Positions 2,337 to 61,286 of a stretch of DNA of 64,000 nucleotides are shown piece by piece. The position numbers and the translations under genes are program-made. The stretch is from an uncultured Hormoscilla sp. (GTDB lineage: Bacteria; Cyanobacteriota; Cyanobacteriia; Cyanobacteriales; Desertifilaceae): the NCBI GenBank assembly GCA_963921275.4, contig OZ001293.3, positions 5,184,001-5,248,000 on the forward strand, in the 5' to 3' direction. The notes beneath the pieces were generated by a model. That model was not told the origin of the DNA and did no database searches. It worked only from the letters and a program-made list of their open reading frames with translations. How positions within the stretch are numbered: the first letter of the stretch is position 1; the number at the start of each line of letters is the position of its first letter.

Positions 2337-3345
2337 TTATGTGTAAAATGAGTTGGAAAAAGTGCGGCGTAGAAAATCGAAGCCCGTGCGGAAGAGACTC
2401 TTCTCGCGTCGTCCATGAGAGCGCAGACGAATCGGCGAACACTCGTGAGTCCAAAAACCTGCCTTCATTGCCCAGGTAAAAGCCAGGCTCAGCAAGGTCA
2501 GCAAGCGGCTTAAACGCTCCGAGTTGTCAAAGTGAAGACAGAAGCCACGGCTCTTCAAGGCTCCAAACATATTTTCAATGCCCCAAGGCTGGGCATAATC
2601 CCGCAGAGCAGTTTCAGGTCGAGCGTCGGTGATGAGGATAAGCAGCTCCCCCGACTCAGGCAGACGAGAGCCAATTACGTAGACCTTTCGTCCCCAAACC
2701 CAGCGGCGACCGGACAGAACACGAGATCCCCCGGCCGCAGAGAGTGAAACATCCGTTCTCCACGACGACGAGTCTTGCCGGACTTGGGGCTGCTCGCTAT
2801 GGCGGATGCGCAGACGGAAGGGAATCTTCGGGTCGAGCAGAAGATAGGAAAGCCATTCCTGGCCGACGAACTCCCGGTCAGCGGTTAGGCAGGCCACCTT
2901 CACTTCCGGAAACAGGGCCTCGAAGCGGTCGAACAAGTCCATGCGCTCGTTACTATTACTGTTGCCTTTCTTATCGAGCATCGTCCACAGCAAAGGGAAA
3001 GCGATGCCCTCGTGGACGACTCCCAGCATCAAAATGTTGAAGTGCGTTTGACCGAAAGACCAACAGGTGCGATCAAGGCTCAACGTCCAGGGGAATGTTG
3101 ATGAGGCTCACCACGAAACGGGCGATTTCTACCAGGTTGAATTCAAATTCACCGAAAAAACGTTGCCATTGCTTGTAATTCGAGGAGATTTGTACAGAGG
3201 TGGCTCCGACAGTGGCTAGTTCGGCTAGATTTACTGTCTTGGCTTGAAACAGCGCCATCAGGAACAGGCAAACAAAGTTTAATCGCGCTCCGTGCCAGTG
3301 AAGGTTCCGACGCAAGGTGTCCCGTAATCGGTTAAGCTCGTTCAT
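2337..3345 (-). pseudogene. IS4-family transposase, frameshifted
   Basis: 'MNELNRLRDTL..HWHGARL' N-terminus plus 'SLDRT.W.FG', 'LTADREFVG', 'WGIENMFGALKSRGF' in two frames (3073-3399, 2337-3083). Confidence 0.85.
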
Positions 3346-9077: not shown

Positions 9078-9397
9078 AGGGCATTATGCCAATGTGAACG
9101 CTGGAGGTATAATTATAGCGGCCCGGTTGGAGCTTTTTAAACTTGCCGGTGACTATTTGGACCTTTCCATCGGTGCAAGCAGGATTTATATCAACTATCA
9201 TTCCACCTCCTAGATAATATAATACATTTCCAGGTCGCGCAAGTATCTCTCCTAATCTTTTACCCTTTGCAAATTGTTAAAATGCTAGATATTGGTAATT
9301 TATAGGTGCGATTCCTTCTGGCGTAACTGGGCACCACGTTCAGGATAGTCAGGTGGGGTAAAACCCACAACTCAGGCGTTATGAGGGTTAGATTCCC

Positions 9398-11331
9398 GTG
9401 CGATGAGTTCCAGCCTAACGTAGTCATATACGGAACGCTGGCCTAGGAAACTAGGAACTCTGGTAATCATGGGGGTTTAATGGTCGGGGTTTAATGGTCG
9501 GGGTCGAGCTGGGAATCACTCCCCAACCCTCCAAGAGCGAAACCTGAAGAGCGACTGGAACCGCACACGGCTACTGGTTGGTAAGCTGTTGTCATCAGTA
9601 GGATTACTGGGGGTTACCCCCGTTGTCCCTTACCCTTTGAAATTTTACCCCTTATGGTCAATCCTATTGGACCGTTTAAGTACTGAGCTGCGGAAGGTTC
9701 GCGGAGGATAGTTCAGCAAACCATACTCGCCGCTCTTTACTAACATCTTCCCCATTCTGCTTTCCGCTTTTCGTAAGGGCTCTGAACTTTACCTGGCTAA
9801 GATTTGAATCCAAAATTCGTACTTTCGGAATTTCTCCCTAGTTCTGTGACATTAAGGTTACTTTTCCCAAGGGTGTCTTACCATATCCGTCCTACGTCTG
9901 CATATCCACAGGCATTACCCTGGGCGTTAGCTTCTTAGGACATCCTTCTTCTTCGTGGCTTGCGCTTTACATCTAACTTGTCCAAATGGGGACAGCTCAC
10001 GAGAGGTTACTTCGTTCCCTAGTATCATTTCACGATGCTTTTAGGTTCCTACTATACCCCGGGAGTTCTTTGAGTACGTTATTAGCCAGAGGCAAGAGCT
10101 AATACTAACTACCATTTCCCTTTTTGGGCAAGCGCATAAGCCTTCTTCCGCTGGTTCTGGTTAACGAGGTTTACATAGGTTCGCTTGTTCTAACCATTAG
10201 CATCTTTCCTAGCGGCGTCACCGGCTTAGGCTGCCAGTTATCCTACATTTAAGTCCTCGGGAGGCACCACGGCGATGTGGCTCCGTAGCACCTCCGACCG
10301 GTAGTACCCTCGACCCCCGTACCTGGGGAAAGGGAATTTAACCCCCATGATAACCAGAGTTATCTGGCTGATAGAGCCAGACCCGACTTTCACCTACTGG
10401 CTTATGCCGGAACGAATCGCACTCCCCCTCCCCAGGTACAGGGGTAACCGCGTGAGGTGCTGCGAAGTAACATCATCGTGGTGCCAAGCGAGGACTCAAA
10501 TGTAGGATAACTGGCAGCCCAAGCCGGTGACTCTGCTAGGAAAGATGTCCATGGCTAGAACAAGCGAACCTATGTAAACCTCGTTAAACCCAACCAGCGA
10601 AATAAGGCTTAATGCGCTGGAACAAAAGTTAATGCAGTTAGTGTTAATTAGGGAATTGGCTAACATTGTACCCAAATAACTGCCGGGGAAAAGTAGGGGC
10701 CTAAAGGCATCGTGAAATGATACCAGGGAACGAAGTAACCTCAGCGAGAGGAACGAAGTAACCCCCGTGGTGCTGTCCTCATTTGGACAAGTCAGATGTG
10801 CGTCCGCGTAGCGTGCGCGCAGCGCATAGCGCATGCCCATGAGGGGAGAGATGGCCCGAGAAGCTAATGCCTAGGCGGTGTCTGGAGCATGCCTTGGTGT
10901 CTGGAGCACACCGAGTCCTTCAGGACAAGAGTGTGCGGAAGACGCCAAAGTCCTTCAGGACAAGAGCATGCGGAAGACGCCGGTAATGCCTATGGATACG
11001 CAGACGCGGGTCGGTGATACTAGTAAACTATTGGTACAAGTAGCTCTAAAATGTCATAAGCCCATTTACAGCGTTAGCGAAAGCGAGTTGAGGATTGAGG
11101 AATGTTTAACTGGTAAAACGGAGTGTTAAATGGTGATACTAAAGGTTATCCGGCAGCTCCACTCACCAACCAGGAAAGGGGCGGACGTGCAAGTAGTAAG
11201 GGACAATGGGAGTAATCCCTAGTAATCCTACCCGTGAAAGGGGCCTAGTACCCAGTAGCCGTGTGCGGTGAAAGTCGCATGCACGGTTCCGAAAGGGAGG
11301 GTTGTCCCGCGAGGGACAGCTCGACCCCGAC
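9398..11331 (+). mobile_element. ORF-less group II intron Y nested in X, same orientation (own sequence 9398-9481 plus 10423-11331)
   Basis: GTGCGATGAGTT start directly after ATTCCC; canonical domain V AGCCGTGTGCGGTGAAAGTCGCATGCACGGTTC; ends CTCGACCCCGAC; EBS1 GGGAAT at 10651-10656. Confidence 0.88.
9497..10422 (-). mobile_element. ORF-less group II intron Z (926 nt) nested antisense inside Y
   Basis: Minus strand GTGCGATTCGTTCCGGCATAAG start at 10422, end CTCGACCCCGAC at 9497; domain V mutated; same 5' end recurs at 63956. Confidence 0.87.
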
Positions 11332-11974
11332 TCATGTACAGGGGTGACACTGGCCCACCGTTCCGGAAAAATCGGTGCTGTGGAGCAACATCATCACGGT
11401 GCTGAGCGAGGGCAAATGTAGGATAGCTTCCAGCCCTGAGGAGGCAACGCCGCTAGGAAAGATGTTCACGGTTAGAACAGGCAAACCCATGTAAGGGTCG
11501 TCATGTCAAATCGGTGAAATAAGGCTGAAACACCGGGCACAAAAGTGCATGCAGTTAGGACTAATGCTCTATAATCATTAGTTTTGTACACAAACAACTG
11601 CCAGCCTATAATGGGAACCTAAAGGCATCGTGAAATGACGTTTGGGAACGAAGTAACCCCTGTGGTTCTGTCTCTAGGGACCAGCCAGATGTGAAGCGCA
11701 TGACCACAGTCTTAAGGATGGCCTAAGAAGCAAATGCCTGGGATAATGCCTAGGATATGCAGACGTAGGTCGGTGATAGTAGGAAGTCTTGGGTGAAAGT
11801 AGTCCTAAAAATGCTATGAACCGGTAGGTGACTGCCAGGTATGTATGAAGACGTAAGTCTTGAAGGGACCAAATCTCATGAGGCAAGGGACAACGGGAGT
11901 AATCCCGAAGTTACCTACTTATGACAAGGGCCTACTACCCAGTAGCCGTATGCGAGGAAAGTCGCTCTTTAGGT

Positions 11975-12666
11975 TCCGAATGGGAGGGTTCCGAAGCGAT
12001 TCCCAGCTCGACCCCTAAAATATTTATTTCAGAAACTATAGTAACTCGGTATTTGATGAGTGGCACTCGCACCAAAAAGTTGCTGGCATCAGGGGTTAGG
12101 GAATAAACTGGAAAATAATACCAGGCGCACGAGGAGTAGCGAAGTGGCGCAAAACGAAGGGCTACGTCATAAACAAGATGCGCTCGCGCACTACTAATAA
12201 TTGCGCATTTTTGCTTGCTATAAAGCAGCGTTATCAGCTAAAATAGAAAAAGCAGACCGATGGCTAGCCCTGGCTGCTAACTTAAGCAAGCCGTTCATGA
12301 GTTGTGTAACTGGATTTTTATCCGAATGGGAGGGTTCCGAAGCGATTCCCAGCTCGACCCCTAACATATTTATTTCAGAAACTATAGTAACTCGGTATTT
12401 GATGAGTGGCACTCGCACCAAAAAGTTGCTGGCATCAGGGGTTAGGGAATAAACTGGAAAATAATACCAGGCGCACGAGGAGTAGCGAAGTGGCGCAAAA
12501 CGAAGGGCTACGTCATAAACAAGATGCGCTCGCGCACTACTAATAATTGCGCATTTTTGCTTGCTATAAAGCAGCGTTATCAGCTAAAATAGAAAAAGCA
12601 GACCGATGGCTAGCCCTGGCTGCTAACTTAAGCAAGCCGTTCATGAGTTGTGCAACTGGATTTTTA
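11975..12666. repeat. 346-bp direct tandem duplication
   Basis: 11975-12320 is repeated almost exactly at 12321-12666 (duplicated ORF-track entries at 12201 and 12547 are 346 bp apart). Confidence 0.93.
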
Positions 12667-12744
12667 GCTGAAAGCCTTACCCTGCAATTGTTTCAGCCAT
12701 TATTTTCACTCCAGAAAATTTGCACAAATGTATAGGACGCACTA
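12631..12744. mobile_element. About 115-bp MITE (related copy at 34160-34275, opposite orientation)
   Basis: End GCAAGCCGTTCATGAGTTGTGCAACTGG shared with the 34.2 kb copy; imperfect inverted other end. Confidence 0.6.
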
Positions 12745-12823: not shown

Positions 12824-13657
<834 letters not shown>

Positions 13658-27290: not shown

Positions 27291-27863
27291 ATTTTTTTGA
27301 CAAAAAACGGCTCTTATGCTACGAACAATTTTTTCTGACCATATTTGACAAGAAACGATATATATGGTACTATAAGGACTCGATCGGTTAATTGGCCTAA
27401 AAATGTGGTAAACTTTGTATCATGGCTACCAACAGCCGAGACAGCTCTAGATGGCTAGGCTTCCAGCTCACAGATTAAACTAAGCCAACGGGTCACCCCG
27501 CCGACTCGTCTTCAGAACCGGACGTGAGACTTTCACCTCATCCGGCTCCTCAGTTTCGCCATCCTTGTCATGGATACGGCCTTTGTCACCATCTCTGGCA
27601 GACTTTACATCATGGCAATAATCATGCAGCAACTGTAGGTTGGTATACCAGTCTTTACCTCCTTTAGAAACTGGTAGAATATGGTCAACCTCCCATTTGT
27701 CGCCATCTTTGAATTTCAGTCCGCAGTGCACACACTTACCATCCTGCTCTTTTAGCAGTCTGATAACTCTAGCGCTCACATCCGGGCTTTTTCTCAGTCT
27801 TTTGCTCCAATAAACCAGATTACCGTCAAACGGGCTAGCTGTCCCCTTAACCTTTACGTGTCT

Positions 27864-28125
27864 GTGCGATTCGTTCTAGCCTAACGTGGTCAAACACGGA
27901 ACGCTAGCCCGGTTTCATTAGCCGGGAACTCTGACCGCATGGGGGTTAAATTCCCCTCCCCCCAGGTACGGGGGTGACACCGGTCCTCGGTGCTACGAAG
28001 CGACATCATCGTGGTGCTAAGCGAGGACTCAAATGTAGGATAACTGGCAGCCTAAGCCGGTGACGCCGCTAGGAAAGATATCCAAGGTTAGAGCAGGCAA
28101 ACATGTGCAAGCCTCGTTATAAGGA
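27864..28125 (+). mobile_element. 5' part of a group II intron of the ORF-less-family type inserted antisense into the ORF of intron T, truncated by IS5
   Basis: GTGCGATTCGTTCTAGCCTAACGTGG start; domain I motifs shared with families A and Y. Confidence 0.82.
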
Positions 28126-28489
28126 ACCACAGGATTTCATCTTACCCCTGGCCAAGCCCACGACGGGAAAGGCGCTGACGTGCTATTGGATAAAATCGGT
28201 GAGATTGGCGCGCTGCTTGCAGATAAAGCCTATGATGCGGAACAACGTGTGCTCGAGCGCCTGAAAGAGGCGGATTGGATGGCTGTCATTCCTCCAAAAA
28301 GTAACCGCACAGAACACAGAGAATACGATGAAGAAATGTACAAGTGGCGGCATCTAATTGAAAATCTATTCCAAAAACTCAAGCAATACAGGGCTCTGGC
28401 GACACGCTACGATAAAACCGCTCGCAATTTCTTGGGTGCCATCTACCTCGCGGCAGCTGTAATATGGCTTAATTGATGACACGCCCTAG
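28126..28489 (+). pseudogene. IS5-family transposase 3' half
   Basis: 'LLADKAYD', 'VIPPKSNR', 'YKWRHLIENLFQKLKQYRALATRYDK'. Confidence 0.85.
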
Positions 28490-28714
28490 CAAATGAAACC
28501 AGACCAGACTTTCACCGTCACCGGTTTACGCCTGAACGAATCGCACCCGGACAACCTATATCCTTAACCGAGAAGTATTGCCAGCGCTCGTTAATCCGAT
28601 TTTACTCGATTGGATCTAAGCCGCAAATGTCTGACTAATACCATCGTCATGGGTGATCGGAAAGAATGAAACAGCCCTGGTTTCTGGATGCTCAGTTTAT
28701 TTATACCCGGCTAC

Positions 28715-30661: not shown

Positions 30662-30766
30662 GTTGTCAGTTGTCAGTTGTCAGTTGTCAGTTGTCAGTTG
30701 TCAGTTGTCAGTTGTCAGTTGTCAGTTGTCAGTTGTCAGTTGTCAGTTGTCAGTTGTCAGTTGTCA
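30662..30766. repeat. STRR-type heptamer tandem repeat (GTTGTCA)x15
   Basis: Perfect 7-bp tandem array read directly. Confidence 0.97.
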
Positions 30767-31027
30767 GCTGGTTGGGGAGACAAAAATATTCTGCCGATCG
30801 CCTTCCGTCTGGATAATTTCCTGAAACAGTTTGAAACCAAATATGGGATTTGCGTCTATCAGCTTCTGTTCTATCATCTCTGCTGCCTGTTTTTGTTTCC
30901 GGATGTTCTCCCAGTCCACTTTAGCATTTGAGCCATCAACACCTCCCATTTTTACACATCCCCATAAACTTAGCACCAATATCACACAGGCTATCGCTCT
31001 TCCTAATTTCACATTTTTTCTGTTCAT
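30764..31027 (-). pseudogene. Serpin N-terminal fragment with lipoprotein-like signal
   Basis: 'KLIDAN..FGFKLFQEI....NIFVSPTS' is the serpin helix A/s6B signature; frame stops at the heptamer array. Confidence 0.75.
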
Positions 31028-42000: not shown

Positions 42001-42897
42001 TCCTCCTGCTGGGATGGTGGTCCTGTCTCGGGCCGCGATCGGGTCTTGGTTTTCCACTACTGTCACATTCACCGTCGCCTGGTCCGTACCTCCGTTCCCG
42101 TCAGTTATGGTGTAGTTGAAGGTATCGGTACCGGTGAATGTCGTTTCGTTGGGGGTATATACTACCTGGGAGTCAACAATGCTCACCGTGCCGTTAGTAC
42201 CATTGCTGACGCTAGCGATCGACAGCACGTCTCTATCAAAATCGCTGTCATTTGCTAGCACATCTATCCTGTTGGCAATACCCGCGATCGCCTCTACCGT
42301 ATCCGCCACTGCATCGGGAGGCTGGTTGCCACCGACCGTCACCGTTACCGAGGCTGTTCCTGTCTCACCACGACTGTCAGTTATTGTGTAGATAAAGCTG
42401 TCTACCCCTGAGAATGTTGACTCTGCGGGGTTGTAGACCAACTGGTCGGAGCTAATGATCACAGCCCCGTTTGTTGGAGTTCCTACACCAGTTATCGAGA
42501 AGGAGTCTCCATCCGCGTCCGAGTCATTGGCCAGAACTGGTATTGTTGCTGTTCCACCCTCTGGGATCGTCGTCGAGTCTGGTGCTGCCGTCGGGGGACT
42601 GTTAAAGATAAAGTTTTCTGCACTCAGCTGTCCGAGAGTGATCCCGGCCAGAGTGAGAGTGAAGAATGGAGTATCAAACCTCACCCCGCCAATTATTGAG
42701 CTTGCTACTGCTAGCATGACCTCAGCGGTCAGTTCTGGAAATTCTCTAAGATTCAGAATGTCTCCAGTTTCAAACCCGATCGCCTGGTATATAGGTAATG
42801 CGTCGCCGCTTCGACCTACCACCACTACATCGTCTTCACCGATAGTCTCTAACAGATTTGCAGAGGTTGTCTCTGGTGTGAGATTAAAGGTTGCCAT
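39004..42897 (-). CDS. Acidic tandem Ig-like (cadherin-like/Big_9-type) repeat protein with RTX-like C-terminus, 1297 aa
   Basis: About 10-11 repeats 'N.PP.A..D...I.VL.NDSDPDG...DTFTYTI.DG.G..ATVTV'; C-terminal GGLGSD/GGAGAD motifs. Confidence 0.9.
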   Translation of the reverse strand: MATFNLTPETTSANLLETIGEDDVVVVGRSGDALPIYQAIGFETGDILNLREFPELTAEVMLAVASSIIGGVRFDTPFFTLTLAGITLGQLSAENFIFNSPPTAAPDSTTIPEGGTATIPVLANDSDADGDSFSITGVGTPTNGAVIISSDQLVYNPAESTFSGVDSFIYTITDSRGETGTASVTVTVGGNQPPDAVADTVEAIAGIANRIDVLANDSDFDRDVLSIASVSNGTNGTVSIVDSQVVYTPNETTFTGTDTFNYTITDGNGGTDQATVNVTVVENQDPIAARDRTTIPAGGTASISVLENDSDPNGQQLSIVGISDPLNGSTAIRGDQVIYTPATNSAASALVRVTDAFFYTISDGSGGTASSTVIVTIGGPQPPVAVDDSAVTALATAVTIDVLANDTDADEDSLFISGIGSGTPNGGTLSLSGNEVVYTPAATFGGIDSFVYTVSDGNGGVDTATVTVAVGSLSLVANNDTATVVAGQAAIEIDVRANDSDPDGSFTITGVSVPGRGSARIFDSGTLENPADDVVIYEPNSSFRATGGTDTFTYTITNNDGRTDTATVTVLTNQPPVAIDDRSTIQTLATATIAVLDNDSDPDGNSLQILGISPPDNGTATLDENNQVIYIPRTMPNGQPFSGTESFTYSISDGSGGTQSATIRVQVGGNQPPVAVNDTVTVTAGGGAQSLDLLANDSDPDRDPLTVDSVQTSTANGGTVAISNNGVVYTAPQNTETEFVGTDSFTYTITDGQGGTDSGTVTVTIDENTGPTAVNDMVTISGSSNITNTIDVLENDSDPDIGDILRVIGADNSSSLGRVAISDNQVTYTAASGLETFEGNDTVVYTISDAGGLTSTATIRVVFGDIVPPNALRDTTSTSEGTATTIDVLANDRDQTGDPSLRGFGQGSNGTVTRNNGGTPNDRTDDLLVYDPRDGFIGTDTFTYTIAGNETLSDGTALTDTARVTITVGSNQRPSAINDRFIIPARGSATLAVLNNDSDPNGERLRISQNANTTINTSSLGTVTVNSDRSGLIYTVSAGINTAFEGTDTFTYTIVDGGGETDTATVTVRLGGNQQITANNDFAIVISGETTTIPVLLNDNDTNNSSMTITLGDDVDPVNTVGVRGNNITFTGTADDEFTYTISNGANTATATVTVDVLASTTNSRPLDLTAEPIVADSQLLLVGTSNTSGIDELTGSGNADILIGGLGSDRLEGGAGADIFYFQDESDSLRATSDTIQDFNTTEDFIQLTSGFGNVRVTQPIPSQPIFTLTAGDNFSVNISSDTTNTIESRIFIGEI

Positions 42898-43005
42898 GTT
42901 TTTTGTTGCCTCACTAAGTACAATAACTACTGAACCAATTTATTTTTATGCTTTTTTTACCTTCCTTTTTTGACTTGCTGCTGGACTGCCAATTCAACCA
43001 GCTTT

Positions 43006-44370
43006 CTAAGTTTCTAATTGGATACTACCTCTGATTTCTTCCTCACTTGTTGTGTTAGCCAAACCGCTCAAGCTAATAATAAATTGCTCGGGCAGGAAAT
43101 CTGGTTCTGTATTAGGAGTGTTTAGGCCAATTGTAGCAAATCCCAAATCAATATTTTGAGTATTAATCTCTACATCATCACTACTAACCTTGATTCCTGG
43201 AGCAACGTTAAAATCAAGCACAATTGTATCTACTGTCTGGTCAAAACCAACAATATTATCTCCCCCTTCTGTGGGTGCATCTGGGTTCGCACCGCTGTCA
43301 GCCAAGCTACGATATATGAATTGATCTGCACCTGCACCTCCGGACAGAATATCCGCACCAATGCCACCAATAATTATATCATCGCCATCCTCACCTTGAA
43401 TTCTTTCGCGAGTTCCAGTAATTGAATCTAACCGATCGTCACCAATTAGCACATCGGCGCCGCTTGTACCAGTCAATGTATCATCATCTAGATCCACCAC
43501 AATATTGACTGTTGCTACGTCTGTTGCACCCTCACTATCAGCGATGGTATAAGTGAAGCTGTCAACACCTGTGAAGTCAGCATTTGGCGTGTATGACACC
43601 TGGTTACCCACGACGCTAACCGTTCCATTGTTCGCGGTGCTAACCCCACTAACCGAGAGCGTGTCATCAGCGTTTAAGTCAGAATCATTGATCGAAACTG
43701 GAATTAAAGCCTCTTCATTGGCAATAACTCTGACGCTATCATCTACAGCTACTGGTGAAGAGTTGGTTTCTACTGTCAGCGTCACTGTTGCTATGTCAGT
43801 AAACTCGCCATCGGTAATGGTGTAGCTGAAGCTATCATTTTCCGTGAAGTCTGCTGCCAGTGAGTAACTCAGAAAGTCATCGCTGCCATCGTCTGAGGTG
43901 CCGTTATCATTGAGGGTGATAGTACCTCCTGAAACTGAGGTGGTCGAAAAACTGTCGATCGATATCGATAACAGGTCATCATCCGAGTCGTTTGCCAGAA
44001 CCTGAATGTCGAGCGCGCTTCCGGCGATCGCCCTTGCCGTATCATCCGCTGCGAGGGGGGGGCCGTTCTGGCCCACTTCAATAAAATTTGCTACCGTCAG
44101 CTGTCCCAGGGTGATACCTGGAAGCGTCAGCGTTCCGAAGGGAGTCTCGATCCTCACACCTCCGACGATCTCCCTTGCACTATTAACTAGCATCTGCGCT
44201 GTCAGGGCGGGGAAAGCCGAAATATCAATCAAGTCAAAGGTTTCAAAGCCATTGACTATGTCCGTCTCGTTTGCTGATTCTGCTGGACTCACTACTACAT
44301 CAACCACCCCGAGGTTTGGAAACAAGTTCAGAGTATCTGCCACCTCGGCTGTCAGAATATAAGTTGCCAT
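43006..44370 (-). CDS. Ig-like repeat/RTX-like protein, 454 aa (2 repeats)
   Basis: Same N-terminal module, two Ig-like repeats, GGIGADILSGGAGAD tail. Confidence 0.88.
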   Translation of the reverse strand: MATYILTAEVADTLNLFPNLGVVDVVVSPAESANETDIVNGFETFDLIDISAFPALTAQMLVNSAREIVGGVRIETPFGTLTLPGITLGQLTVANFIEVGQNGPPLAADDTARAIAGSALDIQVLANDSDDDLLSISIDSFSTTSVSGGTITLNDNGTSDDGSDDFLSYSLAADFTENDSFSYTITDGEFTDIATVTLTVETNSSPVAVDDSVRVIANEEALIPVSINDSDLNADDTLSVSGVSTANNGTVSVVGNQVSYTPNADFTGVDSFTYTIADSEGATDVATVNIVVDLDDDTLTGTSGADVLIGDDRLDSITGTRERIQGEDGDDIIIGGIGADILSGGAGADQFIYRSLADSGANPDAPTEGGDNIVGFDQTVDTIVLDFNVAPGIKVSSDDVEINTQNIDLGFATIGLNTPNTEPDFLPEQFIISLSGLANTTSEEEIRGSIQLET

Positions 44371-44568
44371 GATTTATTACCTCAGTGAATTATGGGGACT
44401 GTTTTGTGGGTAGCGTTATTTCCTTTTCTTTTTCCTTTGTTCATTAGCCGCCTGCCCACCCCTTCTAGCAATGAGCATTCGGTTGGGTAGTTCAGGCGCT
44501 CCGCGCTCACCCTACTTTTTACAGGCACTATCGCTCAACTACAAGAGCGATAGGTTCCGCTATCAAGC

Positions 44569-46502
44569 CTAGAAGATCAGGGCATTTTGAATTTGAGCCG
44601 CCGTTGTTGCCGCATCTAAACCGCTCAACCGAATCGCAAATTGCTCTGGGAGGAAATCTGGCTCTGTGTTAGGAGTGAAAAGGCCAATCAAAGCTGTACC
44701 ATCCTCAATGAAGTCAAGATTAATTTGTACATCATCAAGAGTAACTGGTGTTCCGGGAGCCACATCAAAATTCAGTCCGATAGTATCCTCGGCTGGGTTG
44801 AAGCCCAGAATATCATCAACCCCTTCATTAGTTGCCGCTGGATTGGCACCGCTGTCAGCTAAGTCCAGATATACGATGCCTTCGGTCGTGACAATTACAT
44901 CATCTACTGAGATCGGGGGTTCATTCTCTGCTTGGGCTGTCACCGTTACAGTTGCCGTGTCCGTCAAATCCCCATCTGAGATCGTGTCAGTCAATGACAC
45001 ATCACCATTCCTATCACCAATAGTGTATGTAAAGCTGTCAGTTCCCGTGAACTCTGCGGCTGCCGAATACACTAGTAGTGTGTCATCTGTCGGGTTAAAT
45101 CGCGTACCGCCATTGTCGATAGTGACCGTTCCGCCCTCTATTGTTGTCGCGGAGAAACCGACTATATAGATATCGTCGCCATCTGGGTCTGAGTCATTGT
45201 CCAGCACTGCGATCGTCTCTGGAGTTCCTTCTGTAGCTGTCACTGTGTCATCAAGCGCGAGCGGGGGCTGGTTTGCTGAGATCGGGGGTTCATTCTCTGC
45301 TTGGACTGTCACCGTTACAGTTGCCGTGTCCGTCAAATCCCCATCTGAGATCGTATAGGTGAAGCTGTCTGCGAGCGTTCCCCCTGTCTCTACTGCCGGT
45401 GGACTATAGATCAACCTTCGTCCGAAGATCAAAAGTTCCCCGCCTGCTGCCGTCGCCCGGGGGATTCCCGAGATCCTCAGCCGGTCGCCATCTGGGTCAA
45501 AGTCATTGTCCAAAACTGAGATTCGAGTGAAGTCAGTAACTGTCACCGCGTCATCGGTTGCCACCGGGGCTACATTTCCGCTTTCTACCTCACCGTTACA
45601 GTTGCCGTGTCAGTCAATGACACATCACCATTCCTATCACCAATAGTGTATGTAAAGCTGTCAGTTCCCGTGAACTCTGCGGCTGCCGAATACACTAGTA
45701 GTGTGTCATCTGTCGGGTTAAATCGCGTACCGCCATTGTCGATAGTGACCGTTCCGCCCTCTGTTGTTGTCGCGGAGAAACCGACTATATAGATATCGTC
45801 GCCATCTGGGTCTGAGTCATTGTCCAGCACTGCGATCGTCTCTGGAGTTCCTTCTGTAGCTGTCACTGTGTCATCAAGCGCGAGCGGGGGCTGGTTTGCT
45901 GAGATCGGGGGTTCATTCTCTGCTTGGACTGTCACCGTTACAGTTGCCGTGTCCGTCAAATCCCCATCTGAGATCGTATAGGTGAAGCTGTCTGCGAGCG
46001 TTCCCCCTGTCTCTACTGCCGGTGGACTATAGATCAACCTTCCTCGGAAGATCAAAAGTTCCCCGCCTGCTGCCGTCGCCCGGGGGATTCCCGAGATCCT
46101 CAGCCGGTCGCCATCTGGGTCAAAGTCATTGTCCAAAACTGAGATTAGAGTTTCTTCAGTAACTGTCGCCGCGTCATCGGTTACCACCGGGGCTACATTA
46201 CTGTTAAAGATAAAGTCTTCTGCCCAACTCAGCTGTCCGAGAGTGATCCCGGCCAGAGTGAGAGTCAAGAATGGAGTATCAAACCTCACCCCGCCAATTA
46301 TTGAGCTTGCTAATGCTAGCATGACCTCAGCGGTCAGTTCTGGAAATTCTCTAAGATTCAGAATGTCTCCAGTTTCAAACCCGATCGCCTGGTATATAGG
46401 TAATGCGTCGCCGCTTCGACCTACCACCACTACATCGTCTTCACCGATAGTCTCTAACAGATTTGCAGAGGTTGTCTCTGGTATGAGATTAAAGGTTGCC
46501 AT
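44569..46502 (-). pseudogene. Chimeric Ig-like repeat gene, frameshifted at about 45588
   Basis: 5' end copies the 42897 gene, body and 3' end copy the 50249 gene; 1-bp loss (TTCTACCTC versus TTCTACCCTC at about 48712) splits it into 305 and 331 aa ORFs. Confidence 0.85.
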
Positions 46503-46760
46503 GTTTTTTGTTGCCTCACTAAGTACAATAACTACTGAACCAATTTATTTTTATGCTTTTTTTACCTTCCTTTTTTGACTTGCTGCTGGACTGCCAATTC
46601 AACCAGCTTTCTAAGTTTCTAATTGGATACTACCTCTGATTTCTTCCTCACTTGTTGTGTTAGCCAAACGCATCTAAAGTGCTTCAGGCGCTCCGCGCTC
46701 ACCCTACTTTTTACAGGCACTATCGCTCAACTACAAGAGCGATAGGTTCCGCTATCAAGC

Positions 46761-49700
46761 CTAGAAGATCAGGGCATTTTGAATTTGAGCCGCCGTTGTT
46801 GCCGCATCTAAACCGCTCAACCGAATCGCAAATTGCTCTGGGAGTAAATCTGGCTCTGTGTTAGGAGTGGAAAGGCCAATCAAAGCTGTACCATCCTCAA
46901 TGAAGTCAAGATTAATTTGTACATCATCAAGAGTAACTGGTGTTCCGGGAGCCACATCAAAATTCAGTCCGATGGTATCCTCGGCTGGGTTGAAGTCCAG
47001 AATATCATCAACCCCTTCATTAGTTGCCGCTGGATTGGCACCGCTGTCAGCTAAGTCCAGATATACAAATCGATCTGCGTCTTCGCCTCCCGACAAGATG
47101 TCTGCACCCAAGGCACCAGTGATCGTATCATTGCCAGCTGCACCATCTATACGTTCTCGTATTCCCCTTCCCCCAAGAGCTATGCTGAGCATATTGTTAC
47201 CAACAATCCAGTCATCACCGTCAGTACCGATTAATTGACCAGCGGGCTGCACGTTGATGCTGACTACTGCTGTCCCTGTCGCACCTGCTGGGTCGCTAAT
47301 GGTGTAGGTGAAGCTGTCGTCACCGGTGAATCCTGCATCCGGTGTGTAGGATACCAGGGCCCCATCTACGCTAGCGGTCCCATTAGCTGGATCTGTGACG
47401 CCATTTATTGTCAGCGCATCATCTGGATCTGAGTCATTATCTAGAACCGTGATGTTGATGGGAGTATCGGCAGCAATAATACGAGCATCAGCCACCGCGA
47501 TCGGGGCCTCGTTGGCCTCTACTATCACTGTCACTGTCGCCGAGGCCGTACCGCCTCGACCATCAGTAATGCTGTAGGTGACGTCGTGCGTGCCATTAAA
47601 CCCAGCATCTGGGGTGTATAGGATCCGATCGTCAGTGGGATCGTCTGGAGTGCCATTCTCATCAATGATGGTCGTACCGTTAGCTGGGTCTGTGACTGAG
47701 GTGATTTCTAAAGGATCGTTATCTGGGTCTGAATCATTATCCAGCACAGCGATTGTAACTGCAATTCCCTCGGTGGTTGTGGCCGCCTCATCTTGAGCGA
47801 TCGGGGGTTGATTATCCGGTTCTACTGTCACAGTTACTGTCGCCGTGTCCGTCAACTCACCGTCAGAGATCCTGTAGGTGAAGTTATCCGTTACTAGCGC
47901 ATCTACTGCGGGTGGCGTATATATCACTGTCTCTCCATCCAGGCTAACTGTTCCGCCTATTGCTGTGCCTGATAGTCCCTCGATCCTCAGCGGCGCGTTC
48001 TCCGGATCTGAGTCATTATCCAGAACAGAGATCGTTGCTGCGATGCCTTCGGTCGTGACAATTACATCATCTACTGAGATCGGGGGTTCATTCTCCGCTT
48101 GGACTGTCACAGTTACAGTCGCCGTGTCCGTCAAATCCCCATCTGAGATCGTATAGGTGAAGCTGTCTGCGAGCGTTCCCCCTGTCTCTACTGCCGGTGG
48201 CGTATAGATCAACGTTACTCCGAAGATGCTAACTGCCCCGCCTGCTGCCGTCGCCTGGGAGACTCCCTCGATCGTCAGCTGGTCGCCATCCATGTCAAAG
48301 TCATTGTCCAAAACTGCGATCGCCTCTGGAGTTCCTTCTGTAGTTGTCGCTGCGTCATCTGCTGCGATCGGGGCTTCGTTAGGTTCTGGTACTGGCTCAA
48401 CCGTGACAATCCCGACAATAACTGTAGCAGTGTCTGTCAACTCGCCATCACTGATGGTGTATGTGAAGCTGTCATTACCTGTGAAACCCGAAGCGGGAGT
48501 ATAGACCAGAGAGTCATCTGCTGTTAGCAAGAAGGTGCCGTTGCGATCGAGAGTTATAGTACCACCCTCTCTTGTCCTTGTCGGGAAGCCTGCCAGAGAT
48601 ATCTCGTCACCATTCGGATCAGAGTCATTGTCCAGCACTGCGATCGTCTCTGGAGTTCCTTCTGTAGCTGTCGCCGTGTCATCGGTTGCCACCGGGGCTA
48701 CATTTCCCCTTTCTACCCTCACCGTTACAGTTGCCGTGTCAGTCAATGACACATCACCATTCCTATCACTAATGGTGTATGTAAAGCTGTCAGTTCCCGT
48801 GAAATCTGCGGCTGCCGAATACACTAGTGTGTCATCTGTCGGGTTAAATGGCGTACCGCCATTGTCGATAGTGACCGTTCCGCCCTCTGTTGTTGTCGCG
48901 GAGAAACCGACTATAGAGATCTCGTCGCCATCTGGGTCTGAGTCATTGTCCAGCACAGCGATCGTCTCTGGAGTTCCTTCTGTAGCTGTCACCGTGTCAT
49001 CAAGCGCGAGCGGGGGCTGGTTTGCTGGCGGCACCACTGTCACGTTTACCGTGCCTGCAGCGGTTAACTCCCCGTCCGATATTGTATAGGTGAAGTTGTC
49101 TGTTCCCGTGAACCCAGATCGCGGTGTATAGACCAGGTAGTCGTCAGTGCTATCAGATTCAGTATCATTATCAGCAAGGCTTACCGTTCCTCCCGCTCCT
49201 GTTAAAGTATCAAAGCTTAACAGTGAAACACTTGTTCCGTTTGGATCGAAGTCATTATCCAGCACAAAGATGTTGACTTGACTATCTCTGCTTGTGCTCG
49301 CCACGTCGCTTCTGGCGATCGGGGGCTGGTTTTCCGGCTCTATTACCTCCACCGTCACCGTTGCCGTGTCAGTAAACTCGCCATCCGATATACTGTATCC
49401 GAAGCTGTCTGTGCCTAGAAACCCTGCTGCTGGAGTATAGATCAGGGTGTCATCCCCCCCGTCTTGGGGCGTGCCGTTATCATTGAGGGTGATAGTTCCG
49501 CCATTGTCAGTCTCCTGATCAAACGCAGTCAGGACGATATCATCTCCATTCAAGTCAAAGTCGTTCGACAGTACATCAATATCTACAGGAGGATCGCCTT
49601 GCCTTGTTGTCACGCTATCCTCTATTGCATCGGGTTCATTATTGGGATTCACTGCCACCGTTACTGTAGCGCTTTCTATCTCTTCGCCTACTGAAATGCT

Positions 49701-56720: not shown

Positions 56721-57172
56721 TACCTGATAATGAACTTTTACTATACTATGTGGCTCTTCGTGAAATGGTATGCGTTCATTGCCATCGGAATAGCCTAAAA
56801 CACTTGCTTCGTCTAGGGTTGAGGTTGTCGCCGCGCGGGAGCGACTGATCTGCAAGGCACAGGCGTTGGAACCATTATTGGTAAAGGGTTTCAGGCGCAT
56901 TAGCTATGATTTTAGCATACTAGATTGGGAAGAGCCTACTATGTATTAGGGGTCGAGCTGGGAATCGCTTCGGAACCCTCCCATTCGGAACCGGACTTGC
57001 GACTTTCACCGCATCCGGCTACTGGGTAGTAGGTTCTTTGTCAATGGTAGGTAACTTTTGGATTACTCCCGTTGTCCCTTGTCCCATGCGATTTGGCTCC
57101 TTTCCTGGTTGGTGAGTGGCGCTGCCGGATAACCTTTAGTGTCACCATTGTCATGTCCGTTTTACCAGTAAT

Positions 57173-58693
57173 ATTAAACTAAGTAAGGGTGTCACCACTC
57201 CTACTCGTCTTCAGAACCGGACTTGAGACTTTCACCTCATCCGGCTCCTCAGTAACGTCATCCTTGTCATGGATACGGCTATTACTACCATCACTGGCAG
57301 TTTTAGTATCGTGGCAATGTTTGTGCAGCAACTGTAGATTGGGATACCAGTCCTTGCCCCCTTTGGATAGGGGTAGGATGTGGTCTACTTCCCATTTGTC
57401 GCCGTCCCTAAACGTTAGTCCGCATTGTTCACATTTGCCCTTTTGTCTTTTGAGCAGGTTCACGACCCTTGTGCTCAACTCTGGGCTCTTACCTAATCTT
57501 ATGCTCCAATATGGTAGGTTACCGTCGTATGGGCTAGCTGTCCCTTTTACCTTTATTTGTCTGATTATCTCAGTTTCGGCGTGTTTGGTTAGCGTCACCT
57601 CTGTGCTTTTGTCTGTCTTACCTCTGAAACACCATTTAACTTCCTGGTTTACAGACCAGTATTTACTAGCTATCCAGTGGCTTGACTTGTTGGGATGCCT
57701 TCTCTTTGCCCATTGCCATAGTATCTCCCATAAGTATTTATCCATGTTGGCGTAAGTTTCCTTACTTACCACCGTTCTGAAGTAGTTGGCCCATCCCCGT
57801 ATTACCGGGTTTAGCCTGCTAATCAGGGCTGCTTGTGGTGCCGTTTTATGGCTGGTTACGATTTGCGCTAATCGTTCTTTATGCTTCCCTATAGATTTCT
57901 TGCTGGGCTTGACTATGGTTTTGAAGCCTAGGGGGGATTTTACCAGTAACCTTTGGAGTCTGCGAACCATCCGCTCGTTGCCTTCCAGTGCCGCTCTGTA
58001 AATTCGTTTTTGCAACTTAAAGACTACCCGCTCCAGCCGAGGCCAAGGAATATCCTTCCATTCATTCATCGATTCTGAAACCGTGCTCATGACGTATGCA
58101 TTGCTACTTACAACTTCACAATTGACGTTACCGTGAGGGCGTCAGCGTATCCTATCCATTACAGACAGGCGTTTGCTTCTCCACGAAATCTCTCCCAAGT
58201 ATGACCTGCCTGATGAAAGCAGATGTTGCGCCTGTGGTGGCTACTCTACCTATCGACCAGTGGTAGAGAGTGCATACCTGGGTTACTTCGTTCCTCTAGA
58301 TGATTGGTTGTAGTTTTAGGTGGACTCTATATGCCGGGTTTATTGTCAGTGCTTATTGGTCGGTTAGGGAACCGCCAATGACCATTATCCTTTCCCTTTT
58401 GGGTCAGCGTGTAAGCCTTTCCGCTGGTTGATGTGACGACACTTATGAGTTTTCGCTTTCGCTCACCATGACCACTTGCTTGGCGATCACCGATTTAGGC
58501 TACCAGTCAGTGCGCCTTTTAACCCCGCTTTACGGATTGATGCCATCGCTACCGTAGGGGTTACGCTTTCACTCCTGCACCTGGAGGGGTGGGCTTTCAC
58601 CACCATCATCTAAAAGTTGTCAGGGCTAATGGAACCCTGAGTGGTCCAAATTTTTGACTTGTGTCAAGTTATTTTACACTAAACGAATCGCAC
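57173..58693 (-). mobile_element. Group II intron U (1521 nt) nested in domain IV of the outer intron
   Basis: GTGCGATTCGTT at 58693, domain V GAGCCGGATGAGGTGAAAGTCTCAAGTCCGGTTC, end GTTTAAT at 57173. Confidence 0.9.
57179..58090 (-). CDS. Group II intron-encoded protein with in-frame deletion of the RT core (N-terminal RT0 part + maturase X + HNH)
   Basis: 'W..LERVVFKLQKRIYRA..LQRLLVKS' joined directly to 'KPSKKSI..LNPVIRGWANYF..WAKRRHP' and HNH; no YADD. Confidence 0.88.
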   Translation of the reverse strand: MSTVSESMNEWKDIPWPRLERVVFKLQKRIYRAALEGNERMVRRLQRLLVKSPLGFKTIVKPSKKSIGKHKERLAQIVTSHKTAPQAALISRLNPVIRGWANYFRTVVSKETYANMDKYLWEILWQWAKRRHPNKSSHWIASKYWSVNQEVKWCFRGKTDKSTEVTLTKHAETEIIRQIKVKGTASPYDGNLPYWSIRLGKSPELSTRVVNLLKRQKGKCEQCGLTFRDGDKWEVDHILPLSKGGKDWYPNLQLLHKHCHDTKTASDGSNSRIHDKDDVTEEPDEVKVSSPVLKTSRSGDTLT

Positions 58694-58915
58694 CTATACC
58701 TCATCACGGACTAGCTTTTGCTATGGTGCCAGTGAAGGGTTCATAACATGTTTAGAGTTACAGTTTCAACCTGAGACTTCCTACTATCACCGACCCACGT
58801 CGGCGTATCCTGGGCATTACCCCAGGCATTTGCTTCTTGGGGGCAGGCTTGGGCTCCCACTCGTGGCTTGCGCTTCACATCTCACTGGTCCTGACGGACA
58901 GCTCACGAGGGGTTC

Positions 58916-59199
58916 CAGCGCATTAAGCCTTATTTCGCTGGTTGGGTTTAACGAGGTTTACATAGGTTCGCCTGTTCTAGCCATGGACATCATCGAGCGC
59001 GTCCTCACCGGTAAGGGCTACCAGTTATCCTACATTTGAGTTCTCGCTTAGCACCACGACGATGTTATTTCGCAGCACCTCCAACCGGTGTTACCCCCGT
59101 ACCTGGGGAGGGGGAATTAAACCCCCATGATTACCAGAGTTCCTAGTTTCCTAGGCCAGCGTTCCGTATATGACTACGTTAGGCTGGAACTCATCGCAC
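58916..59199 (-). mobile_element. 5' part of a second copy of intron family Y nested in W
   Basis: Start GTGCGATGAGTTCCAGCCTAACGTAG identical to 9398; again directly after ATTCCC in host domain I. Confidence 0.85.
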
Positions 59200-59283
59200 G
59201 GGAATTTAACCCCCATGAATACCAGAGTTCCTAATTTCCTAGGCTAGCGTTCCGTGTTTGACCAGGTTAGGCTAGAACGAATA

Positions 59284-60117
<834 letters not shown>

Positions 60118-60272
60118 TGCACTAACCTAGTTCTGTCAAGAAGACGGACAACTATCCGAAAACCGTTCGAGAATTCGCAAATCTTCGCCCAGGTTCTAGC
60201 ATAAGCCAAAATACTCATTACAAAAATGGGATGCACCCATGTGCAACTCCTTCAGTTCCATTCACATATATT

Positions 60273-61286
60273 AACTCAAGTTGCGACCTATAAAAATTGG
60301 ATACAAAAAGCTATGATAAAGAGAATTATTTTCAACTCTAATCCCTTAGATGTAACAGCATGAATTGACTTGGGAAACAAATTGGTGATTCGACTAAAAC
60401 AGGTTTCAACTTGTTTTCTTGTTACTTTTTGTATATATTCAAAACAAGAAGATTCTTTTCTTTTTGAGTTCTTTTTTCGCAAAGCTTTTAACATTATACT
60501 TGACGACTCTTTTAGTAAATCCTCTAATTGATAATCATTATAAGCTTTATCTCCATAAACTATTGAATTTGATGGTAAGTCAAAGCCAAAAGATTGCAAA
60601 ACTTTAACATCATTATAACTACCAGGATCTAGATAAAATTCTATTGGCTTTCCATTTTTGTTTACCAACATATGAACTCTTAATCCATAAAAATAACGTT
60701 TTTTACTGGCAATATACCCTCGATATTCTTCCTTGTTATAAATTTAGCATCTATCAATCCTAATATTATCACATACTGGCACCGGGAAACTATCAAGAAT
60801 ATATTCTTGACCCGGATTGAGCTCTTTAAATGTTTGAGCTATAACTTGGAAGAAAAACATCCAAATTGCTTCGTCAATATTGTGTAATCGACGATTGAAC
60901 CTACTTTTACTTAACAGATTTTTTATATACTTGTGTTCGACCATAAATTGACAAGAGCGATCGTGGTGTCCTCCGAAAAAATATGCAGCAACTAATCCGA
61001 CTGTCATCACTTCGGCATTGTTCATTTTTACTTGTGGATCTTCTTTTATATTTAACGCTTTTAGTAGCTCGTCACAAAGAACAAAAATTGTTGTAATCAT
61101 ATCTTCCATCATCTACATCCCCCAGCAATTAACTATTATTTTAGTACATTATAACCTATAAACAGCCAACCCGCCGTCTAGCACAAAAAAAATATAATTT
61201 TGTATCAAAAGCTACGAAATATCCCAAATATCTGTAAAGTCTAAGTGGGTAATTCATATTTTTTTTAATAGGTCGCAACTTAGGTT
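60273..61286 (-). mobile_element. IS982-family element; transposase (61112-60288) interrupted by one nonsense codon
   Basis: 'ILDSFPVPVCDNIRI', 'YGDKAY', 'RKQVETCFS', 'IHAVT..G'; TAA at 60744-60746 in frame; terminal inverted repeats. Confidence 0.9.

Follow-up and report, generated by a model that had tools for sequence, protein, structure and literature searches.

Two introns interrupted at the same position

A 64,000-nucleotide (nt) stretch of the genome of an uncultured Hormoscilla sp. (GenBank:GCA_963921275.4, contig OZ001293.3, positions 5,184,001–5,248,000; hereafter referred to as the window) contains two different group II introns, X and W, in each of which a further intron, Y, begins directly after the same short motif of domain I. 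The question raised by this arrangement is whether the motif is a homing site of Y, and whether Y entered it once or twice. Small group II introns lacking an open reading frame (ORF) are numerous in the window: an Rfam search of it returned seven matches to the model for domains V and VI (RF00029), and self-comparison of the window made several related intron lineages visible. Alignment showed that most members of the family begin with GUGCGAUUCG, and Y with GUGCGAUGAG. We consider it likely that Y represents an ORF-less lineage that was inserted by two separate retrohoming events into a domain I hairpin of its sibling introns. The first-pass annotation of this DNA had placed both Y copies directly after the motif in two different hosts, and this was borne out, the junctions reading ATTCCC/GTGCG at 9397/9398 on the plus strand and at 59200/59199 on the minus strand.

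In the first nest, located on the plus strand, the 5′ segment of X runs from its GTGCG to the motif (9306–9397), its start being 9306 and not 9308; the 5′ exon of X itself ends in TTATAG, which forms 6/6 pairs with exon-binding site (EBS) 1 of X, CTATAA. The occupied motif, ATGAGGGTTAGATTCCC (9381–9397), contains the putative intron-binding sites (IBS) for Y, IBS2 being GGGTTA (positions −13 to −8) and IBS1 being ATTCCC (−6 to −1). It is followed by the first 84 nt of the copy designated Y1 (9398–9481, starting GTGCGATGAG), which are identical at 84/84 positions to 59199–59116, and, beyond an intervening antisense intron (V), by the rest of Y1 (10423–11331, plus strand), which begins in domain I and extends as far as the 3′ end, ...GACCCCGAC. 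With V taken out, Y1 comprises 993 nt (9398–9481 plus 10423–11331). Upon removal of 9398–11331, X becomes colinear with the family alignment, and the rest of X (11332–12019, plus strand), beginning with TC, completes a 5-bp hairpin, GAGGG/CCCTC. Counting V, X::Y1 is thus a nest of three levels, in which both Y1 junctions are precise.

Domains V and VI of Y1 (11254–11331, plus strand) scored 47.9 bits with RF00029, compared with a gathering score of 40 and with 46.6–46.9 bits for the near-identical copies of family A, another lineage of the window. The 3′ end of Y1, ...CTCGACCCCGAC at 11331, coincides with the end of this match, and no other domain V/VI was found by Rfam in 9200–12700 at E ≤ 1, neither X nor V giving a match. 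The 5′ end GTGCG, present at both 9398 and 59199, agrees with the GUGYG consensus, and the 3′ end of Y1 agrees with AY; the bulged A of domain VI was read by eye from domain VI of family A. No intron ORF was found in Y1 among the ORFs of the window, leaving its domain IV without a reverse transcriptase/maturase, and Y1 is an ORF-less group II intron derivative, a form recognized in PMC2882425.

The antisense intron V (9496–10422, minus strand; 5′ end GTGCGATTCG at 10422) is approximately 83% identical to family A and carries one extra C relative to the 3′ end of the family. The first segment of Y1 stops within the motif copy that Y1 itself carries, GGGTTTAAT/TCCC, which is split by V at a point 4 nt from the position targeted by Y. 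Between this segment and V lies a 14-nt tandem duplicate of the Y1/V 3′-end junction (9482–9495, unit GGGGTTTAATGGTC), part of a tandem repeat at 9472–9504 with a period of 14, 2.4 copies and 100% matches; the duplication as such (9472–9499) lies at the 3′ junction of V. Since V EBS1 (TGCCTC) and EBS2 (AACCAG) form only 9/12 pairs with the 5′ flank CTGGGG-A-GGGGGA, V looks like an off-target insertion. It was also noticed that Y1 contains material with no counterpart in its relatives, namely a repeated GGAACGAAGTAACC block at 10727–10762 and an insertion of about 150 nt (extra region 10727–10985) with a 35-nt tandem repeat at 10914–10981 and an 11-nt repeat at 10800–10824. At the end of the nest, a perfect-register tandem duplication of 346 bp (11975–12666, 99% identity) consists of the last 45 nt of X, belonging to domain VI, and 301 nt of the 3′ flank, the duplicate copies differing at the last base of X (A versus C).

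The second nest, on the minus strand, begins with the host fragment W (59200–59283), 84 nt ending ATGGGGGTTAAATTCCC, which has no GTGCG of its own and lies directly after the 3′ end of the family A copy A3. The second Y copy (58912–59199, minus strand) starts GTGCGATGAG, corresponds to the first 288 nt of Y and has retained EBS2 AAACCC. Comparison with Y1 gave 101/101 identical positions for nucleotides 1–101 and 161/187 for nucleotides 102–288, that is, 262/288 for the whole copy. It ends at a deletion junction, GCGCTGGAAC/CCCTCGTG, where approximately 130 nt present in all other copies, including the EBS1 hairpin, are missing. The remainder of this nest (56945–58911, minus strand) consists of one intron body with another intron, Z, inserted at 57173–58693; its domains V and VI (56945–57023) scored 42.9 bits with RF00029, and its last 134 nt are 87% identical to X and 75% to Y1, the last 45 nt being 44/45 identical to X. 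W and the second Y copy therefore present two 5′ ends with a single domain V/VI and a single 3′ end. This could reflect a collapse of the twintron through recombination of nested introns with like orientation, an event described for Methanosarcina in PMC4424553, or a separate loss of the remainder of W.

Pairing of Y with the motif

To read the pairing elements in the same way in all introns, EBS2 was located between the conserved flanks TCGTT and AACCAGCG, and EBS1 in the loop of the hairpin that follows, where its columns are fixed. The calibration set consisted of 11 loci from a motif scan of genome contigs (Hormoscilla, Oscillatoriales) together with A1–A3, V, X and Y1, which gave 15 distinct intron-site combinations. 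The homologous columns paired with the intron's own 5′ exon (−6 to −1 and −13 to −8) at 10 or more of 12 positions in 13/15 combinations, and at no fewer than 9 in 14/15, the one exception being locus L006, which has a mutated 5′ end.

In Y1, the same columns hold EBS2 AAACCC (10586–10591, plus strand, flanked by CTCGTT and AACCAGCG) and EBS1 GGGAAT (10651–10656, plus strand). The complementarity of GGGAAT to ATTCCC, claimed in the first-pass annotation, was confirmed at 6/6 positions, and the hexamer lies in the hairpin-loop columns that hold the EBS1 with which the relatives pair to their own exons; EBS2, which that annotation had left to be checked, pairs with the host IBS2 at 5/6 positions and is in register. 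For GGGTTA-G-ATTCCC of X the total is 11/12, all Watson-Crick and in the usual register of the family, which supports the motif as the cognate homing site of Y. The variant in W also gave 11/12, and the GGGTTTAATTCCC variant of the motif 12/12. The chance of obtaining at least 11/12 Watson-Crick pairs is 2e-6. As for EBS3-IBS3, no column covarying with the first base of the 3′ exon was found among the candidate columns compared.

The target as a domain I hairpin

The 17-nt motif, ATGRGGGTTARATTCCC, was found eight times in the window at up to two mismatches (seven exact copies and one with one mismatch), compared with 0.03 expected from shuffles, and the exact 13-nt target, GGGTTNNATTCCC, has eight sites in the 64 kb, all of them (8/8) inside intron domain I. 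Read directly, the motif is a hairpin situated about 75–92 nt into domain I, whose stem consists of the strands GGGGG and CCCYY, on either side of a loop of 7 nt, UU(A/U)(A/G)AUU; it may be that of subdomain Ic. In X, the A of GAGGG pairs with T in the 5-bp stem, and Z has GGTGG/CCACC at the same place. The hairpin was assigned by this direct reading and by local minimum-free-energy folds, which gave it in six of nine segments; RNAalifold, applied to the first 150 nt of the aligned introns, returned no clear domain I structure. The GGGTTTAATTCCC variant is present in Y itself and in 7/15 related introns sampled outside the window. The insertion point of Y follows the third C in the 3′ strand and splits the stem, which would keep the host from folding until Y had been removed.

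A probable sequence of events is as follows. Y belongs to the same family as the other introns of the window, and its EBS1 GGGAAT and EBS2 AAACCC would have recognized the complementary hairpin of its siblings. A Y ribonucleoprotein, with the reverse transcriptase supplied in trans, would have reverse-spliced into the hairpin DNA after ATTCCC, in at least two separate events, one in X and one in the different intron W, both giving sense-oriented introns within introns. With its hairpin stem split, the host ribozyme would be foldable only after Y had been spliced out, and splicing would be sequential. Y1 may then have decayed by gaining the antisense intron V and internal duplications, and W::Y by losing one intron length through recombination or deletion, such that two 5′ ends came to share one 3′ end. 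Both Y copies look inactive as they stand, because V lies antisense in domain I of Y1, and the second copy has suffered a deletion of the EBS1 region.

Homing site or tolerated insertion

An alternative that we regard as unlikely is that Y is an ordinary intron with its main homing site elsewhere, and that its copies were merely tolerated in junk DNA, with no specialization. Nested mobile elements have accumulated in the window as in a graveyard, and many of the other nestings occur with no conserved intron motif as a cognate pairing partner: V is antisense in Y1 with 9/12 pairs, Z is in domain IV of the second nest, and the intron at 27864 is antisense in an intron ORF. In addition, insertion-sequence fragments adjoin A1, A3 and the 27864 intron, and group II introns are often located in other mobile elements, as stated in a review (PMC8919778). 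However, the pairing of Y1 with its flank, 11/12 in register, is at the cognate level (10–12) and above that of the imperfect V (9), and both Y copies in the window (2/2) occupy exactly one and the same position of an intron motif. Moreover, the 11 specified bases of the target would by arithmetic occur by chance about once per 4 Mb per strand, compared with eight intron-borne sites in 64 kb.

Related introns outside the window were sought by scanning genome contigs with a 19-mer containing two degenerate positions, which gave at least 21 loci. Among the matches listed, 15 were intron domain I contexts, from Hormoscilla sp. metagenome-assembled genomes (MAGs) and Oscillatoriales cyanobacterium USR001, and six (L002, L003, L010, L011, L012 and L020) were dropped as unrelated chance matches. 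Since these loci were chosen by the motif, their motif conservation is circular and was excluded from the evidence. In the plasmid collection, the 3′ part of Y1 gave short domain V-like matches and one weak match of 142 nt (71% identity) in a Nostoc plasmid, and the X/Y junction gave no match. Five of the scanned introns, from Hormoscilla sp. MAGs (L008, L013, L015, L017 and L019), are ORF-less, approximately 785 nt long and have EBS1 CACYCC; because their 5′ flanks, ...CTGG(C/T)ATGG(G/A)GTG, are similar, they seem to have their own repeated sequence as a homing site. L014 and L016 have identical flanks and are interrupted about 215 nt into the intron.

Several observations weigh against the homing of Y into its siblings. 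The motif is unoccupied in 6/8 window copies, namely in A1–A3, which are near-identical recent copies (2233, 13567 and 60027, all minus strand), in the 27864 intron (27939, plus strand), in V (10332–10348, minus strand) and in the second Y copy (59112–59128, minus strand); the first-pass annotation had rightly described it as vacant in the family A copies, the 27864 intron and an intron called Z there, which is probably the present V. There are just two Y copies, both defective. The one in the second nest, also identified as Y in that annotation, does have its 5′ end at the motif, but its likeness to Y1 is confined to the first 288 nt and does not extend to the EBS1 hairpin, which is missing; the EBS1 evidence thus comes from a single copy. 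The 3′ part of the second nest is nearer to X or A than to Y1, with segment identities forming a mosaic, and only the 5′ junction survives there, with no 3′ junction and only 84 nt of W, so that no colinear host is regained at this locus. The control of 190 non-cognate pairs was noisy (mean 6.1; 40 scored at least 9 and one at least 11), because sibling families share near-identical EBS. No intact reverse transcriptase was found in the window, where the sole Pfam-supported intron protein has no RVT_1. Outside the window, the 20-mer at the 5′ end of Y had no match in the genome-contig collection, and, among the matches listed, Y-type occupancy was seen in 0/15 related introns and EBS2 AAACCC in 0/11 with a readable EBS2.

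A further step would be to regard Y as an obligate intron-dwelling lineage, the core hairpin being available as a target in every member of the family, including the ORF-less ones and Y. Recursive nesting would then be possible and targets would grow in number with the family, as every member would carry the hairpin and the copy in Y itself allows 12/12 pairs. Folding of the host would depend on the splicing of Y, a form of hyperparasitism directed at the catalytic RNA and not, as in the published cases, at domain IV or the ORF. We put this forward only tentatively and consider it doubtful.

One insertion or two

Both nests might descend from a single ancestral insertion, as the first-pass annotation had recognized, either by duplication of the nest or by gene conversion of the 5′ end of Y into another intron. 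The X and W 5′ segments are identical at just 59/93 aligned positions, and equal decay of host and inner intron, as predicted for a duplicated nest, was rejected by Fisher test, with p = 3e-13 when compared with the 101/101 identical positions at the start of Y and p = 4e-9 when compared with 262/288. W is closer to the A, Y and 27864 types (72/84, 86%) than to X (59/84, 70%). Furthermore, W keeps an A 7 nt from the junction where X has a G, which leaves 6 nt for a gene-conversion crossover, and a conversion tract would therefore have to begin within ATTCCC. On the other side, the Y copies do not differ over their first 101 nt but are only 86% identical over the 187 nt that follow, a patchwork pointing to exchange of sequence among copies; the hosts agree at 24/30 in the 30 aligned columns adjacent to the junction (29 nt of X and 30 of W), and BLAST merges the flank and the start of Y into one match, 94.7% identical over 114 nt. 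The drop in identity after nucleotide 101 means that the copies exchanged sequence, and the independence of the two insertions is in this respect suggested rather than proven. Since the hosts have diverged, the starts of Y are alike and there is no room for a conversion tract starting in the host, the sequences favour two separate insertions, and a single one seems improbable.

It is still less probable that similar introns recombined or underwent partial tandem duplication to give the junctions, with no reverse splicing, for although the second locus resembles a partial duplication (the 84 nt of W are 88.6% identical to the start of Y that follows) and has a single 3′ end, and small and large tandem duplications lie nearby, homologous recombination would not, on two occasions and in different hosts, put GTGCG, nucleotide 1 of an intron, directly behind position 92 of another, and X::Y1 has two precise junctions and a complete inner intron with its own domains V and VI and with EBS complementary to the flank.

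Other introns and repeats in the window

Family A is represented by three minus-strand copies, A1 (1642–2323), which has a 152-nt internal deletion, A2 (12824–13657) and A3 (59284–60117), the last being 834 nt long and directly upstream of W; their own motifs, at 2233–2249, 13567–13583 and 60027–60043, respectively, are those listed above as unoccupied. The mutual identity of the copies is 99–100%, which indicates recent spread. ORFs for DDE transposases adjoin A1 (2337–3083) and A3 (60288–60671). The 5′ flank of A3 has ...TTAGTGCA at its end, and the 3′ flank goes on with TATTCGTTCTAGCC, corresponding to W from approximately nucleotide 6 onward (59284–60140, minus strand), so A3 may sit a few nucleotides inside the 5′ end of W. 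The A-family EBS1, TGCACT, would also pair with AGTGCG, that is, the universal intron start preceded by A. Homing into the 5′ end of W as a habit of the family, considered in view of the GTGCA just upstream of A3, was rejected because A1 and A2 occupy non-intron sites with the same kind of IBS.

Intron Z (57173–58693, minus strand) lies in sense orientation in domain IV of the body of the second nest. Its 303-aa ORF (58090–57179) contains RVT_N, GIIM and HNH domains and lacks RVT_1; by reading, its EBS2 fits the flank at 5/6 positions, and no EBS1 was matched. Domain V of Z and that of the intron at 27474 match the Rfam plastid domain V model, RF04357; together with the 5′ starts of the family given above, this is the only lead towards a chloroplast-like or IIB class. 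The latter belongs to a pile-up at 27474–28546, which begins with the 3′ part of a minus-strand intron (domains V and VI at 27474–27550) together with a fragment of its ORF covering the endonuclease part. This intron is interrupted at 27864, antisense in its ORF, by a 5′ intron fragment on the plus strand (27864–28129), which has an unoccupied motif at 27939–27955 and is cut off at 28129 by insertion-sequence DNA; by eye, a reading frame in the latter resembles the C-terminal end of a transposase and may be one. The 5′ end of another minus-strand intron, GTGCGATTCGTTCAGG, is found at 28546. Two further repeats show no relation to introns: a perfect tandem array with a 7-nt period at 30662–30767, and extensive internal repeats (42598–49500) in very long minus-strand ORFs between 39004 and 50249.

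Relation to known nested introns

The idea that relatives offer an intron a safe and expanding target, put forward for Y in the first-pass annotation, is already known, having been stated for Thermosynechococcus elongatus (PMC2882425) and Methanosarcina acetivorans (PMC4424553). In the T. elongatus twintrons, ORF-less F3 introns (TeI3a-e) are located in F1 introns (TeI4a-e), the inner introns being identical and the outer ones diverged, with independent insertions; the authors also describe a target supply that expands and is non-essential (Mohr, Ghanem and Lambowitz 2010, PMC2882425). Y resembles this system in being a cyanobacterial ORF-less intron with EBS-IBS homing into a conserved site of related introns, and in that the inner copies are more similar than the outer ones. 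Mobilization by a protein supplied in trans was demonstrated for T. elongatus and would be presumed for Y; likewise, mobility was shown there by experiment, whereas the Y copies are relics. The T. elongatus site belongs to domain IV, where the first and the second ATG of the intron ORF enclose it, leaving the ribozyme core untouched, whereas the Y site is a domain I hairpin that Y itself and ORF-less relatives have as well.

For Methanosarcina, repeated site-specific homing into introns was described to be balanced by deletion through homologous recombination (Zimmerly and Semper 2015, PMC4424553), and the M. acetivorans nests of Dai and Zimmerly (2003) are referred to as a site for perpetual homing in the same review. 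The collapsed W::Y nest fits this balance of insertion and deletion. Unlike Y, the Methanosarcina introns are archaeal and reach up to five levels of nesting. Judging from the title of the 2003 study, the targets there are reportedly the ORFs of related introns and not a domain I hairpin.

The twintron of Trichodesmium erythraeum Tery_4732 (Pfreundt and Hess 2015, PMC4649490), also cyanobacterial, has a host intron that starts with GUGCGAUUC and an inner intron within domain I, beside the theta element; sequential splicing was shown for it, and the article cites the view that an inner intron is assured of being maintained when it is inserted where splicing of the host depends on the site. It differs from Y in being a single conserved locus in a protein-coding gene with ORFs in both introns, and its site is not presented as a family-level homing site in PMC4649490. 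In the chloroplast twintrons of Euglena, the inner intron often must be spliced before the outer one folds, as proposed for Y, but these introns are organellar and highly degenerate, and the summary in PMC4424553 gives no evidence of a shared cognate motif. No nesting in domain I was found in PMC5088586, and the literature searched contained no paper joining a group II intron with Hormoscilla. What differs from the published cases is the site, a core hairpin common to ORF-less relatives and to Y.

Conclusions

In their present state, the two nests are well documented but decayed, and they exemplify a principle that has already been published. Genome-wide confirmation would make Y the third case, among bacteria and archaea, of group II introns with homing sites in their relatives, and the first whose cognate site is not domain IV or the ORF but a structural hairpin in domain I. 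Even relatives that have lost their ORF possess a site of this kind, and insertion there would put the host ribozyme out of action for as long as the inner intron stays in place, which would bear on the proliferation of introns in intron-rich cyanobacteria and on the origin and collapse of twintrons.

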